Source of the DNA: a virus
Virus record (IMG/VR): IMGVR_UViG_3300025584_000013
DNA length: 30,276 nucleotides
Reading direction: 5' to 3' (one strand)
Shown piece by piece: positions 3,634 to 18,146 of the stretch. Position 1 is the stretch's first letter. Every line of letters begins with the position of its first letter. Below the pieces are notes generated by a model. That model was given only the letters and a program-made list of their open reading frames with translations. It was not told the DNA's origin and ran no database searches. Both the position numbers and the translations under genes were made by a program.

Positions 3634-3909
3634 ATGAAGTATAAACACGGACAAGTAATTAAAGTAAATGGTGAAGTTCCACTTATGAATCCAGAAGATT
3701 GGTTCAATGATATGATTGAAGGTGGAATACCCTTAGAACAGGCATTAGACCATGTTATAACTGATTGTATTGTGATGTCAAAGGTAAATGATATGTTGGG
3801 TGAACAAGATGAATTATTCGGAAATAATCAAGGTTTAATTGGAGATTCAACCACATGGAAACAAGGTGGTGGAATGTTTGAAGTCCGAATAGAAGATGAA
3901 AACGTTTAA
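3634..3909 (+). CDS. Hypothetical early protein
   Basis: Promoter plus AAAGGAAAAAAACA-ATG RBS cassette. Confidence 0.8.
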   Translation: MKYKHGQVIKVNGEVPLMNPEDWFNDMIEGGIPLEQALDHVITDCIVMSKVNDMLGEQDELFGNNQGLIGDSTTWKQGGGMFEVRIEDENV

Positions 3910-3918
3910 AAATAACTC

Positions 3919-3947
3919 TTGACTTTACCATTTATTCGTAGTACATT
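3919..3947 (+). promoter_or_regulatory. sigma70-like promoter
   Basis: TTGACT-N17-TACATT. Confidence 0.85.
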
Positions 3948-14213: not shown

Positions 14214-14284
14214 TCACCCATGATGAAATGGTATCATGTCTGATTGTTAATCAGATCTTCCTGGTTCGAATCCAGGTGGGTGAG
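14214..14284 (+). tRNA. trnN: tRNA-Asn(GTT)
   Basis: Acceptor TCACCCA/TGGGTGA; loop TTGTTAA; T-loop TTCGAAT; G73. Confidence 0.95.
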
Positions 14285-14289
14285 CAAAT

Positions 14290-14361
14290 ATCTCTATGGT
14301 GTAATTGGTAGCATTACGGATTCCAAATCCGTTAGTCTGAGTTCGAGTCTTAGTGGAGATG
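14290..14361 (+). tRNA. trnW: tRNA-Trp(CCA)
   Basis: Acceptor ATCTCTA/TGGAGAT; loop TTCCAAA; G73. Confidence 0.95.
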
Positions 14362-14369
14362 CAATATAT

Positions 14370-14440
14370 GGGCTTGTGGTGAAATGGTATCACATGAGAT
14401 TTTGAATCTCATATTATCGGTTCAACTCCGATCAGGCCTT
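14370..14440 (+). tRNA. trnQ: tRNA-Gln(TTG)
   Basis: Acceptor GGGCTTG/CAGGCCT; loop TTTTGAA; atypical U73. Confidence 0.9.
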
Positions 14441-14463
14441 CTAAAAGTTTTTTAAAATAACAC

Positions 14464-14492
14464 TTGACTTTATGAATTATTGTTTGTATATT
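14464..14492 (+). promoter_or_regulatory. sigma70-like promoter (duplicate of 14175)
   Basis: TTGACT-N17-TATATT with an identical spacer. Confidence 0.85.
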
Positions 14493-14523
14493 TAGGTGTT
14501 AATTGAAATGATGAGATAAGAAA

Positions 14524-14631
14524 ATGAAAGATAAGAGAACTAATAAAAATTACAGCCTAACTAAAGAGTTTAACAAAGCAATTAACTCCAGTTGGTATAA
14601 GAAAATAATGAAACGACTAAAGTTCGTTTGA
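14524..14631 (+). CDS. Small basic peptide, 35 aa
   Basis: MKDKRTNK...KRLKFV* directly after the promoter; weak SD. Confidence 0.4.
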   Translation: MKDKRTNKNYSLTKEFNKAINSSWYKKIMKRLKFV

Positions 14632-14665
14632 TTAAAAGTTTTTTGACAATTTGTTTACCATAAAT

Positions 14666-14737
14666 GGCCCGGTCGTCTAATGGATAGGACACTGGACTTT
14701 CACTCCAGGAACCGGAGGTCAGTACTCCGTCGGGCTA
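14666..14737 (+). tRNA. trnE: tRNA-Glu(TTC) with a non-canonical T-loop
   Basis: Acceptor GGCCCGG/TCGGGCT; loop CTTTCAC; T-arm CGGAG-GTCAGTA-CTCCG. Confidence 0.85.
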
Positions 14738-14824
14738 CAATAAAATATTATGGAGAGTAAAATACTTGAACGAAAAACTCGTTCTCCTTATATTTATTAT
14801 AGAAGATAATATAGGAGAATTGAT

Positions 14825-15400
14825 GTGTATAAATGTAAAGTAAAAAACTGTGGATATGAAACTGAAAGTCATCCACAAATAGCTAATCATTCTAAATGGG
14901 TTCATAAGAAAGATGAGCAATATACGGTATGTTCGTATTGTGATAAAAAATACCAAAAGGCAAATTTGGGGCCACATGAAAAACGATGTATGTATAATCC
15001 AGAAAATTATACTGAATGTAAAGAATGTGATACTCACATAGAAAAACACCTTACATTCTGTAATTCAAGTTGTTCAGCGAAGTATAATAACAGAGTTGGT
15101 AAGACTGGATATAGAAGGATGATAAATGATAATAATGGTATTCATCCTAATAAGATTGGAGTAAACCCACATTATAGGGAAATGTGTTTTGAGAACTATG
15201 AACCTGAATGTGTAATATGTGGATGGGATATTTCGGTTGAAGTTCACCATGTAGATAATAATCATGATAATGATGAACCAAAAAACTTAATACCACTGTG
15301 TTCTAATCATCACATAATGACACGAATGAATAAGCATAAAGAATTGATAAATGAAAAAATTAATGAAATAGTAAAAGAAAAATATGGGGCTATGGTATAA
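14825..15400 (+). CDS. HNH endonuclease with N-terminal zinc-finger motifs
   Basis: CxxC...HxxxxH fingers; CVICGW...VEVHHVDNNHDNDEPKNLIPLCSNHH HNH core. Confidence 0.85.
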   Translation: MYKCKVKNCGYETESHPQIANHSKWVHKKDEQYTVCSYCDKKYQKANLGPHEKRCMYNPENYTECKECDTHIEKHLTFCNSSCSAKYNNRVGKTGYRRMINDNNGIHPNKIGVNPHYREMCFENYEPECVICGWDISVEVHHVDNNHDNDEPKNLIPLCSNHHIMTRMNKHKELINEKINEIVKEKYGAMV

Positions 15401-15456
15401 AGCGATTACACCGCATTTGCACTGCGGAAATTAGGGTTGGATTCCCTATAGCTCCA
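15386..15456 (+). tRNA. trnA: tRNA-Ala(TGC)
   Basis: GGGGCTA/TAGCTCC with G3:U70; loop TTTGCAC; overlaps the end of the HNH ORF. Confidence 0.92.
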
Positions 15457-15464
15457 CACCATAT

Positions 15465-15538
15465 GTACAGGTGGCAGAGTGGTTTAATGCGGTGGATTGC
15501 AAATCCATTATTCATCGGTTCGAATCCGATCCTGTACT
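15465..15538 (+). tRNA. trnC: tRNA-Cys(GCA)
   Basis: GTACAGG/CCTGTAC; loop TTGCAAA; U73. Confidence 0.95.
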
Positions 15539-15543
15539 CAACA

Positions 15544-15614
15544 GGGGAATTAGTTCATCGGTAGAATGATTGGCTTACATCCAATAGAGAATGGTTCGAT
15601 TCCATTATTCCCTA
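15544..15614 (+). tRNA. trnV: tRNA-Val(TAC)
   Basis: GGGGAAT/ATTCCCT; loop CTTACAT; A73. Confidence 0.95.
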
Positions 15615-15622
15615 CACAAAAT

Positions 15623-15694
15623 GCTCTCATAGCTTATCAGGTAAAGCAACTGGTTTGTAACCAGAAGAGCGGGGTTCGATTCCTCGTGAGAGCT
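15623..15694 (+). tRNA. trnT: tRNA-Thr(TGT)
   Basis: GCTCTCA/TGAGAGC; loop TTTGTAA. Confidence 0.95.
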
Positions 15695-15704
15695 CAAACA
15701 ATAT

Positions 15705-15776
15705 ACTCTCGTGGTGAAACGGATATCATATTTGGCTACGAACCAAAAGTTGGGGGCTCGATTCCTCCCGAGAGTA
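15705..15776 (+). tRNA. trnR: tRNA-Arg(ACG)
   Basis: ACTCTCG/CGAGAGT; loop CTACGAA; T-loop CTCGATT. Confidence 0.92.
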
Positions 15777-15779
15777 CAG

Positions 15780-15859
15780 TATAAATAGAAACGGTAGAAG
15801 TCCGTTATAAAGACTTTGAGTTAATTCCTCAGACGAAAGATTGACGCTCTCTATTTATA
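15780..15859 (+). ncRNA. Candidate 80-nt structured RNA inside the tRNA array (not a tRNA)
   Basis: 10-bp outer stem TATAAATAGA/TCTATTTATA; inner AACGG/CCGTT and TTTGAG/CTCAGA hairpins; no T-loop motif. Confidence 0.5.
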
Positions 15860-15868
15860 TCATTTTTT

Positions 15869-15940
15869 ACTCCCGTAGTGTAAAGGAGAACACAGTAGTT
15901 TCCTAAACTACAAATGATGGCTCGATTCCATCCGGGAGTA
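15869..15940 (+). tRNA. trnR: tRNA-Arg(CCT)
   Basis: ACTCCCG/CGGGAGT; loop TTCCTAA. Confidence 0.92.
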
Positions 15941-15945
15941 CAATT

Positions 15946-16017
15946 GGACCCATAGGTTAACTGGTAAACCAGATGGCTTTTAACCATCTGTTCCCGATTC
16001 GAGTTCGGGTGGGTCCA
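15946..16017 (+). tRNA. trnK: tRNA-Lys(TTT)
   Basis: GGACCCA/TGGGTCC; loop CTTTTAA. Confidence 0.95.
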
Positions 16018-16018
16018 C

Positions 16019-16162
16019 ATGAGTATAAAATATGAACCGACCTTTGGTGAGTATGTAGTAATACGGATGAAGGAAGAAAATATATCTTGGAAAGATTTAG
16101 ATGAAGATACTATTGACTTTTTTCATACTCAATGGTTGATTGACAGAAAGAGGGTCCCGTAG
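16019..16162 (+). CDS. Hypothetical protein, 47 aa, ending inside tRNA-Leu (not in track)
   Basis: MSIKYEPTFGEYVV...DRKRVP*; stop TAG 16160-16162. Confidence 0.5.
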   Translation: MSIKYEPTFGEYVVIRMKEENISWKDLDEDTIDFFHTQWLIDRKRVP

Positions 16163-16227
16163 CCCAATTGGTAGAGGCAATAGACTTAAAATCTATACAG
16201 GTGTTGGTTCGATTCCAACTACCCGGT
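16153..16227 (+). pseudogene. tRNA-Leu(TAA) with non-complementary acceptor strands (chimeric or pseudo-tRNA)
   Basis: D, anticodon (CTTAAAA) and T arms are intact, but 5' GGTCCCG cannot pair with 3' TACCCGG. Confidence 0.8.
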
Positions 16228-16263
16228 CAATAGTTATATTATATCTGTAATAGATAACTAAAC

Positions 16264-16638
16264 ATGATATTTATTACGGATAGAATGGAGTTAGAAATGG
16301 AAATTCATGATAAAAGTTGGGGATATGAAAAGTGGATAGTAAATAAGAAAGAATACTGTGGGAAACTTCTATTCTTTAAAAAGGGAAAACATTGTTCCTT
16401 TCATTACCATAAAATAAAAGATGAGGTATTTTATTTACAGTCTGGTTCGATAATAGTTAGATATTCAAATGAAGATAACTTAGAAGAATCTAAAAAAATG
16501 ATTATGGAACCTGGTGATACATTTCACGTTTCTATTGGATTACGTCATCAAATGCTTGCAATAGAAGATAGTGAATTATTTGAATTTTCAACACAACACT
16601 TTGAAGATGATAGCTATAGGATAATTAAAGGTGATTAA
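16264..16638 (+). CDS. Cupin-fold protein (sugar-isomerase-like); start possibly at a later Met
   Basis: KSWGYE..., CSFHYHKIKDEVFYLQSG, RHQM: the two-His cupin motifs. Confidence 0.8.
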   Translation: MIFITDRMELEMEIHDKSWGYEKWIVNKKEYCGKLLFFKKGKHCSFHYHKIKDEVFYLQSGSIIVRYSNEDNLEESKKMIMEPGDTFHVSIGLRHQMLAIEDSELFEFSTQHFEDDSYRIIKGD

Positions 16639-17020
16639 AGTTTGGACTAATGGTTGCTTTGATGTTTTACATCGAGGACATATAGAGTTGTTTAAATATG
16701 CTAAATCACTTGGAGATATTCTTATAGTTGGTATAGATACTGATGCAAAGATTAGAACAGATAAGGGTAAAGGTAGACCAATACACACATTGGAAGATAG
16801 AATAGAAATGTTAAATTCTATAAAGTATATTGACGAAGTTTTACAGTTCAATACAACTAACGAATTACGAAATTTAGTTAGAGTTACATTACCAGATATA
16901 ATGGTAGTTGGTTCGGATTGGAAAAACGGTCAAGTGATTGGTAGAGAATTTACAAAGGAATTAAAATTTTTTGATAGGGTGGGTGATTATTCAACCACTA
17001 AAATAATGGAAGCGTGGTAG
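16631..17020 (+). CDS. Nucleotidyltransferase (RfaE domain II/TagD-like cytidylyl/adenylyltransferase)
   Basis: TNGCFDVLHRGH (HxGH), IVGIDTD, KGKGRPI and YSTTKI motifs. Confidence 0.9.
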   Translation: MIKVWTNGCFDVLHRGHIELFKYAKSLGDILIVGIDTDAKIRTDKGKGRPIHTLEDRIEMLNSIKYIDEVLQFNTTNELRNLVRVTLPDIMVVGSDWKNGQVIGREFTKELKFFDRVGDYSTTKIMEAW

Positions 17021-17094
17021 AGTGGTTGATTGTACATCCCCGCTAAGGATGCTTACCTTAATAGGTAACGGAGGTTCGAATCCAACATCTTCCG
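17008..17094 (+). pseudogene. tRNA-Ser(GCT) with mispaired T-stem and acceptor (chimeric or pseudo-tRNA)
   Basis: Long variable arm; T-stem GGAGG/CCAAC has 2 mismatches; acceptor GGAAGCG/ATCTTCC has 2 mismatches; C33. Confidence 0.8.
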
Positions 17095-17102
17095 CAATAT
17101 AT

Positions 17103-17188
17103 GGAGAGATCCACTGAATGGTCGGCAACTGGGTTTGAACCCCAGGGTGAATGAAAGTTTGGGGGTTCGATTCCTCATCTCTCCTCCA
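17103..17188 (+). tRNA. trnS: tRNA-Ser(TGA) with an 8/4 acceptor/T-stem configuration
   Basis: GGAGAGAT/ATCTCTCC 8 bp; GGGG/CCTC 4-bp T-stem; loop TTTGAAC; U73 plus encoded CCA. Confidence 0.75.
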
Positions 17189-17191
17189 ATT

Positions 17192-17267
17192 GCTCTCGTG
17201 GTGAAACAGGATATCACAAATCGTTTCTACCGATTTATTGAGGGTTCGAGTCCTTCCGAGAGTACCA
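17192..17267 (+). tRNA. trnR: tRNA-Arg(TCT)
   Basis: GCTCTCG/CGAGAGT; loop TTTCTAC; encoded CCA. Confidence 0.95.
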
Positions 17268-17354: not shown

Positions 17355-18092
17355 ATGAAATGTGAATATTGTAATAAAGAACATAATGGGAGTTTTGCAA
17401 CTGGTAGATTTTGTAATAGGAGTTGTTCTAATGGATTTTCTACTAAAGCAAAACGAAAAGAAATAAATGAGAAAGTTAGTAAAACTTTAACACAACATAA
17501 ACAGATTGAAAGAAATTGTTTGGTATGTAATAAAAAGTTCATTACCACTGATTATAACGGTCCAACTCAAACACAACAAAAACTATGTTCAAGAGAATGT
17601 GGAAGCCAGTATTGGCCTGATAGTCGTAGGAAATCACAATCATTGGCTATGGTTAAACGAATATTAAATGGACATGCACCATCATTGAAGTCTATTAGAT
17701 GTGAATATTTATATAAAGATAAATTAATAAAGTGTGATTCTAAAGTAGAATATAGTTGTTTAGATTATTTTGAAAATGAATTTAATGTGATGGATATTGA
17801 TAGATGTAATTTTAGTTTACCATTTGAATTTGAGAATAGAGAACGGAGATATATTCCAGATTTTAAAATAAAAACTACTAATGGTGAAATTTATATTGTA
17901 GAATGTAAAACTATTATTTCCAACAATGACTTGCAGAGAAAATGGAAATATTATTACGATACTATAGATATTAAACGAGAAACTTTAATAAATTACTGTG
18001 ATAAGAATGGATACACACCATTTTTTTATAATAAAGAACTCAATAGAAAATTTTACGATAACTGCAATCCCACCGGTATACCCTCGGTCTGA
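17355..18092 (+). CDS. Putative homing-type endonuclease: Cys-rich N-terminal motifs plus a TnsA/PD-(D/E)XK-like C-terminal domain
   Basis: CEYC...FCNRSC and CLVC...CSREC; catalytic-like YIPDFKI...IVECK. Confidence 0.7.
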   Translation: MKCEYCNKEHNGSFATGRFCNRSCSNGFSTKAKRKEINEKVSKTLTQHKQIERNCLVCNKKFITTDYNGPTQTQQKLCSRECGSQYWPDSRRKSQSLAMVKRILNGHAPSLKSIRCEYLYKDKLIKCDSKVEYSCLDYFENEFNVMDIDRCNFSLPFEFENRERRYIPDFKIKTTNGEIYIVECKTIISNNDLQRKWKYYYDTIDIKRETLINYCDKNGYTPFFYNKELNRKFYDNCNPTGIPSV

Positions 18093-18146
18093 TAAACCGT
18101 TGAAAGGTTAATTGGTTACACGTTGGTTCGACTCCAACCCGGTGGA
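18070..18146 (+). ncRNA. D-armless tRNA-like RNA with an Ile-like (GAT) anticodon loop
   Basis: CCACCGG/CCGGTGG acceptor, A73, GTTGG-TTCGACT-CCAAC T-arm and CGGT-CTGATAA-ACCG arm; only 8 nt between the acceptor and anticodon arms. Confidence 0.65.

Follow-up and report, generated by a model that had tools for sequence, protein, structure and literature searches.

Damaged tRNA genes beside a cupin and nucleotidyltransferase cassette in a phage tRNA array are probably scars of recombination inside tRNA genes

The IMG/VR virus record IMGVR_UViG_3300025584_000013 contains 30,276 nucleotides of DNA (the whole of this stretch is called the window here, and positions are counted from its first letter) that are AT-rich, densely filled with small plus-strand open reading frames (ORFs), and include genes for PhoH and a CobS/MoxR-type AAA ATPase as well as a tRNA array at positions 14214–17267. 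Inside this array a cassette of two genes, which encode a cupin and a nucleotidyltransferase (NTase), is bordered on its left by a tRNA-Leu(UAA) element (16153–16227) and on its right by a tRNA-Ser(GCT) gene (17008–17095), and both of these bordering tRNAs, which like the cassette are on the plus strand, are damaged. A first-pass annotation made from the letters of the sequence took both to be chimeric and proposed that the cassette had entered the array by a double crossover within them. The large proteins of the window match only those of uncultured phages and a Microcystis myophage, and a megablast search of the region against the GenBank phages found nothing. Relatives of the NTase adjoin T4-type DNA polymerase, sliding-clamp and clamp-loader genes in marine viral contigs and are also present in T4-like phages of Synechococcus and Prochlorococcus, and from these matches we read the source of the window as a marine T4-like myophage.

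The two tRNA elements that border the cassette

ARAGORN with its default settings finds 13 tRNAs in the window and makes no call at 16153–16227, even at a relaxed threshold. When acceptor and T stems are counted together, each of the 13 array tRNAs other than the Leu and Ser(GCT) elements has at most one non-pair, in agreement with the earlier statement that the rest of the array pairs well, so the defects described below are not background noise. One of these other tRNAs, tRNA-Glu(UUC) at 14666–14738, is missed by ARAGORN at its default threshold and was found by Infernal (45.6 bits) and by ARAGORN at the relaxed one.

The tRNA-Ser(GCT) has four non-pairs (6-67, 7-66, 50-64 and 51-63) and scores 18.5 bits with the tRNA model RF00005, below the gathering score of 29 bits, whereas the corresponding Ser(GCT) of L001, an IMG/VR contig related to the window (below), scores 56.2 bits; the fold z-scores of the two genes against shuffled sequence are −0.38 and −3.69, respectively. 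Its 5′ part (17008–17081), which extends up to the T loop, is of a GGAAGCG / GGAGG type that calls for CCTCC-CGCTTCC on the 3′ side, and its actual 3′ part (17082–17094) is CCAAC-ATCTTCC-G, as in Ser(GCT) genes of a GGAAGAT / GTTGG type. The 21-mer at 17073–17093, which runs from the T loop through the last base of the acceptor strand, is present exactly in 66 IMG/VR contigs, and in 59 of these it ends an intact tRNA-Ser(GCT) with the 5′ strand GGAAGAT and the T stem GTTGG/CCAAC, every one of the 59 being perfectly paired. Compared with what this 3′ end needs, the window gene has exactly four differences on its 5′ side (CG for AT and GA for TT). Intact tRNAs with a GGAAGCG/CGCTTCC acceptor stem and a GGAGG/CCTCC T stem also exist, and a Ser tRNA of this type in contig L097 is the same as the window gene at 17 of its first 18 nt and again over the 15 bases that lead into the T loop. 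The two parental types have in common the 11-nt T-loop motif at 17073–17083, and the switch from one to the other is inside it, where the first-pass annotation had placed a change of identity. These alignments show that the gene takes its first ~74 nt from one Ser lineage and its last 13 nt from a different Ser(GCT) lineage. The sequence downstream of the GGAAGAT-type Ser(GCT) in the 59 contigs is not close to the block that begins with tRNA-Ser(UGA) in the window.

The left-hand element has the opposite appearance, with its inner parts in order and its ends not. Infernal aligns it to RF00005 over model positions 8–63 only, that is, the D, anticodon and T arms (38.7 bits; the anticodon TAA is at 16187–16189), and its terminal strands, GGTCCCG (16153–16159) and TACCCGG (16220–16226), form one wobble pair and six non-pairs out of seven, so that the acceptor stem is absent; intact inner arms and mismatched acceptor strands are what had been described from the letters alone. 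Its fold z-score against shuffled sequence is −0.12, compared with −2.40 for the Leu tRNA of cyanophage P-RSM6, and when it is judged as a canonical tRNA (full length, paired acceptor, RF00005) it gives a local match and nothing more.

The core of the Leu element is homologous over its full length to the annotated 73–74-nt tRNA-Leu genes (codon UUA) of cyanophages P-RSM6 and P-SSM7, and the short Leu tRNAs of many other phages are homologous to it as well. Its short variable loop is thus native and is not the fusion point of a class II Leu tRNA; the gene is correctly typed as a tRNA-Leu with a short variable arm, a form present and annotated in cyanophages. A fusion of a class II Leu with a second tRNA at the variable region was accordingly dropped as an explanation, since a short-arm Leu(UAA) is a normal phage type. 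The 5′ strand and D arm (26 nt) are identical at 25 of 26 positions to an intact tRNA-Leu of Mycobacterium phage Finemlucis that ends in CGGGACC-A, which argues that the 5′ strand is native and that the 3′ strand TACCCGG, with the T at position 73, is foreign. Both intact types whose existence had been predicted are thereby found, the GGAAGAT...GTTGG/CCAAC...ATCTTCC Ser(GCT) in the 59 viral contigs and the GGTCCCG...CGGGACC short Leu in Finemlucis. The junction in the Leu element is at or before position 66 and could be either in the variable loop, which has one extra G relative to its relatives, or directly after the T stem. No exact match to the Leu core is present in IMG/VR, and a scan of the GTDB genomes for the left junction found nothing. 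The predicted repaired 3′ end of the Leu tRNA is matched by unrelated tRNA-Arg(UCU) genes of bacteria of the Candidate Phyla Radiation and by nothing else, and is uninformative on parentage.

The two bordering tRNAs, then, both appear to be chimeric as had been claimed: the 5′ and 3′ segments of the Ser gene match two different intact lineages and its switch is in a stretch that both parents share, and the 5′ part of the Leu element matches an intact short Leu. The comparisons show in part that the Leu element is a hybrid, its own 3′ strand (expected to be CGGGACC-A) having been lost to foreign sequence. It is a pseudogene, and the tRNA-Ser(GCT) reported by gene finders at this place is probably non-functional; from their predicted pairing both hybrids are probably either inactive or severely impaired. 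A split or trans-paired tRNA was also considered and rejected, as the complements CGGGACC, CCGGGTA, GGAAGAT (as a 5′ end) and CGCTTCC are absent elsewhere in the window as parts of tRNAs.

Could the two genes simply have decayed by point mutation, as redundant tRNA genes might, with no recombination at all? The window array is smaller than that of L001, which suggests erosion, but the four discordant Ser positions fall within five adjacent bases on the 3′ side, where independent changes would have had to reproduce exactly the 3′ end that a different natural family of Ser(GCT) genes has and where a single replacement explains all four mismatches, and in the Leu element six of seven acceptor pairs are lost while the inner arms are all perfect. 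We regard decay of this kind as the least probable of the explanations considered here. It is scarcely more probable that the two elements are working non-canonical RNAs, the Leu core serving as a decoy for a host anticodon nuclease or the Ser(GCT) being a tolerated mispaired tRNA. The flawless inner arms of the Leu element, the odd tRNA-like species known in phage arrays and the recurrence of this genome in many samples are compatible with such roles, but neither element folds better than shuffled sequence, and a recent scar would equally be expected to keep its inner arms.

The genes that overlap the two elements bear on whether the junctions are real. The last four codons and the stop codon of the NTase gene are inside the 5′ end of tRNA-Ser(GCT), and the last codons and stop codon of a 47-aa ORF (16019–16162, plus strand) overlap the 5′ strand of the Leu element. 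An assembly chimera, in which metagenome reads from different strains were joined at tRNA genes, is conceivable for an uncultured source, particularly since the 21-mer at the Ser 3′ end is common to many phages. Against it, the Ser parents share only the 11-nt motif at the switch, which is too short for a k-mer mis-join, and the exact proteins whose genes overlap the two 5′ strands recur in the NCBI, JGI, ENA and Logan collections, the 47-aa protein on 13 contigs and the NTase on 187, as does the protein of a third array gene, ORF245 (below), on 169. ORFs that span the scars themselves are absent from the protein collection, and so provide no independent check. We consider a mis-assembly very improbable.

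By translation and homology the 47-aa ORF is itself a 3′-truncated member of a family of 67–71-aa proteins, as its homology to five longer relatives stops near residue 40. It is absent from L001, and none of its relatives in IMG/VR adjoins the relevant tRNAs. This truncated gene is a third scar, a further rearrangement within the same few hundred bases.

The cassette and its slot in a related contig

The first gene of the cassette encodes a cupin of 113 aa (16297–16638; Pfam Cupin_2, PHROG 7851, E 4.5e-53), and the second, at 16631–17020, encodes an HldC/TagD-type NTase of 129 aa (Pfam CTP_transf_like, PF01467, E 1.6e-19; PHROG 7878, E 2.4e-49). Longer cupin reading frames begin at 16264 and 16285, but a 1-nt length difference upstream of the gene (window 16264–16300 compared with L001:5634–5670) places these starts out of frame in L001, so translation probably starts at the conserved ATG at 16297. 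The two families are a widespread pair in marine T4-like phages. No tRNA is present within the flanks in 15 of the 17 metagenome loci that were scanned by means of the NTase, nor in IMG/VR loci L002 and L003, and among the loci found with the NTase the pair is inside a tRNA array only in the lineage of the window and L001. The NTase scan of metagenomes returned relatives of at most 71% identity and one short fragment, none of them in a tRNA array.

L001 is collinear with the window at 76–87% identity, and a search with the conserved spacer pattern returned only L001's own contig, so that it is the single close relative in IMG/VR. It has the same pair of genes in the same slot, between an intact tRNA-Gly(UCC) on the left and an intact tRNA-Ser(GCT) on the right. 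In the alignment of the two, homology sets in with the base that follows the left tRNA, in a shared plus-strand trailer/leader (16228–16296; 88.9% identity over 16228–16263), continues through the cassette at 87–89% (the cupins are 86.9% and the NTases 87.0% identical), and ends at the first base of Ser(GCT). The tRNAs at the cassette borders are only 53–58% identical between the two, and both Ser tRNAs of the window are essentially unrelated to their L001 counterparts (52–58%). Since the cassette is as diverged as its surroundings (87% identity compared with 83–87% for the backbone) and occupies the same slot, it was in that slot before the lineages of the window and L001 split, and the intact border tRNAs of L001 mean that its entry into the array did not require the sacrifice of tRNAs. 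The proposal that crossovers in the two damaged genes imported the cassette is consequently not supported; on the evidence of these alignments the cassette looks like a long-standing resident of one array slot rather than a fresh import.

A single double crossover with a co-infecting relative, one exchange in the T arm of Leu(UAA) and the other in that of Ser(GCT), could still have brought in a copy of the cassette and broken both tRNAs at once. The recipient's DNA between the two points would have been replaced by a donor block that ran from the 3′ end of some tRNA X through the cassette into the 5′ part of the Ser gene of the donor. The geometry fits, as each scar is odd in its cassette-facing half relative to its outer half; other phage arrays (as in contig L035) have a short Leu(UAA) close to a GGAAGAT-type Ser(GCT) and no cassette separating the two, and the T arm of the Leu element differs from a T arm of the Ser-donor type by one loop base. 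In L001, however, intact tRNAs flank the cassette in the same array slot, the gene–tRNA junctions are identical and identity is at the level of the backbone; the cassette is thus ancestral to the lineage, and the donor would have to be a close relative. In addition, the left T stem is perfectly paired, so that a crossover in the T loop needs an X with that same T stem, and with ~15% divergence and many other differences between the arrays two separate events are at least as likely as one. We therefore think this double crossover unlikely, although it is the strongest of the alternatives.

The remaining differences between the window and L001 concern tRNAs and small (nuclease-like) ORFs. To the left of the cassette, an intact tRNA-Lys(UUU) (15946–16018, plus strand; called by ARAGORN and by RF00005 at 65.3 bits) is followed in the window by the 47-aa ORF and the Leu element only, and in L001 by Leu(UAA), Tyr, an RNase P-like element, Leu(UAG), His, Ile(UAU), an ORF, Asp and Gly. 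The seven tRNAs, the ORF and the RNase P-like element that are counted between Leu(UAA) and the cassette in L001 are all missing from the window, and L001 is not the window's direct parent. To the right, a plus-strand block of tRNA-Ser(UGA) and tRNA-Arg(UCU) occupies 17103–17267; Ser(UGA) is 52% identical to the L001 copy, Arg(UCU) 80%, and the spacer that follows 100%. The array is a hot spot in which small ORFs and nuclease genes come and go, and in this looser sense the first-pass annotation's description of it as a series of landing pads holds, though not in the sense of cassette entry by way of sacrificed tRNAs.

Several unusual RNAs were seen in these two arrays. The tRNA-Ser(UGA) of the window (17103–17188) folds with 8 bp in the acceptor stem and 4 bp in the T stem and is matched by the tRNA-Sec model alone (30.9 bits), and its L001 counterpart behaves likewise (37.3 bits with tRNA-Sec). 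The RNase P-like element, ~200 nt at L001:4640–4841, matches bacterial RNase P class A from end to end of the model at 44 bits (E 3.7e-11; the gathering score is 100) and is perhaps a strongly reduced, RNase P-like RNA of a phage array; nothing in the window matches in this way. L001 also has a tRNA-Asn(GUU) (2888–2974) and a tRNA-Thr(UGU) (3853–3939), each 87 nt long, with the long variable arm of a class II shape and a score of ~55 bits. This shape is unusual for these anticodons, and P-SSM7 has an annotated 85-nt tRNA-Asn.

Candidate nucleases and the origin of the scars

Two plus-strand ORFs of the window encode predicted nucleases, and both are absent from L001. The first, of 191 aa (14825–15400), is between tRNA-Glu and tRNA-Ala, which in L001 are 8 nt apart; it matches PHROG HNH endonuclease families (best E 2.8e-9) and is a candidate free-standing homing endonuclease. 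The second, ORF245 (17355–18092; 245 aa), has a zinc-finger-like N-terminal region and a C-terminal region that resembles PD-(D/E)xK nucleases, as judged by weak but concordant matches to TnsA-like proteins, restriction endonucleases and Holliday-junction resolvases. In its homologues this N-terminal region is joined to Vsr-like/DUF559, endonuclease I, endonuclease VII or HNH domains, and a relative of ORF245 is in the tRNA array of another phage, which makes it a candidate mobile nuclease by homology; the GTDB genome scan for ORF245 found nothing. Its place in L001 is taken by a canonical tRNA-Ile(GAU) (L001:6675–6747), and an odd Ile(GAU)-like element is present in the window at 18070–18146.

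The precedent for such genes is T4 SegB, a free-standing endonuclease encoded in the T4 tRNA cluster, whose recognition site contains the T-loop motif GGTTCRANTCC and which drives preferential inheritance of the T4 tRNA region (PMC2330249). The likeness is that candidate mobile nuclease genes are inside the window array and absent from its close relative, that the SegB site includes the very motif in which the Ser chimera switches, and that SegB causes co-conversion of the tRNA genes that flank it.

We conclude, with a probability of roughly 0.65, that the tRNA array is a fine-scale recombination mosaic with a resident cassette and that its damaged tRNAs are scars of recombination inside tRNA genes. 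At the right scar, a switch within the 11-nt T-loop motif common to two Ser lineages has left four stem pairs mismatched. At the left scar, an in-register deletion or a crossover may have joined the Leu gene to the 3′ end of the tRNA that formerly preceded the cassette. Double-strand breaks made by the predicted nucleases, the HNH ORF and ORF245, might have started or favoured these events, and by analogy with SegB such breaks could have been repaired from co-infecting relatives.

Some observations weigh against this conclusion. The direct parents were not recovered, and with L001 at ~15% divergence it is a matter of inference how many events took place and in what order; no intact tRNA that ends in ...CCAAC-TACCCGG was found in IMG/VR, the GTDB genomes or the fetched loci; and SegB is a GIY-YIG enzyme, unlike the window candidates, which by domain match are of HNH and PD-(D/E)xK-like types. 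A bolder version, in which the nucleases cut the T-loop motifs, the tRNA genes act as portable homology arms, and the cassette moved in by one double crossover that left both scars, seems to us doubtful, somewhat more so than the double crossover alone.

The locus provides a clear natural case of a phage tRNA array being reshaped by recombination within its tRNA genes, with both parental tRNA lineages identified for one scar and a separate parent and deletion pair in other viral contigs (below). For annotation, it means that a called Ser(GCT) is probably dead and that the Leu element should be listed as a pseudogene. It also suggests that, in abundant marine phages, free-standing nucleases may be linked to the turnover of tRNAs and auxiliary genes, which can be tested.

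Comparison with known systems

The locus resembles an integrase island at a tRNA gene in that a cassette is beside tRNAs and a repeat containing the T loop is present at both borders. That 14-mer, GGTTCGA(T/A)TCCAAC, is where the first-pass annotation had located it (16206–16219 and 17073–17086), but the universal T-loop motif accounts for 11 of the 14 bases and only the AAC is specific, so the repeat amounts, with its one mismatch, to a universal motif plus three bases. Nor does the comparison hold in other respects. No integrase family is matched by any window ORF of at least 180 aa, as had been said of the window as a whole, and neither border tRNA is intact or has been restored, as one would be at an attachment site.

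Cyanophages provide close known counterparts of both the cassette and the Leu element. S-SM2, P-TIM68, Bellamy and SynMITS9220M01 have the same two gene families next to each other, annotated as "cysteine dioxygenase" (the cupin) and as nucleotidyltransferase or heptose-1-phosphate adenylyltransferase, but there the pair adjoins kinase/epimerase genes or the DNA polymerase gene, whereas in the window it is in the tRNA array. The short Leu(UAA) of P-RSM6 and P-SSM7 is homologous to the window copy in the D arm, the anticodon arm and loop, the short variable loop and the T arm (82.8% identity to the P-RSM6 gene over 64 nt), and the window copy differs in being without an acceptor stem and in having T instead of A at position 73.

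Recombination hybrids in phage tRNA arrays are a long-known kind of event, and there is no new mechanism here. McClain and Foss reportedly described, in 1984 (Cell 38:225–231), hybrid tRNA genes in the T4 cluster that arose by recombination between stretches common to different tRNA genes. Like those hybrids, the window scars are in a T4-type tRNA cluster and have mismatched stems; in the T4 hybrids the intervening genes are reported to be lost. The T4 hybrids differ in being, as reported, laboratory deletion mutants that join neighbours in one genome, whereas the window scars are natural, and the Ser scar joins two alleles of one isoacceptor from different phage lineages.

A natural counterpart is found in other, unrelated viral contigs. 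L035 has an intact run of Leu(UAG), Leu(UAA), Ser and Ser(GCT), and its derivatives L032, L052, L073 and L082 are 98.7% identical to it with a deletion of ~290 nt. The deletion is at an 8-base shared stretch, where it has fused the D arm of the short Leu(UAG) to the T arm of Ser(GCT) and removed Leu(UAA) and another Ser. This parent and its derivatives are a direct natural parallel for the tRNA fusion scars of the window.

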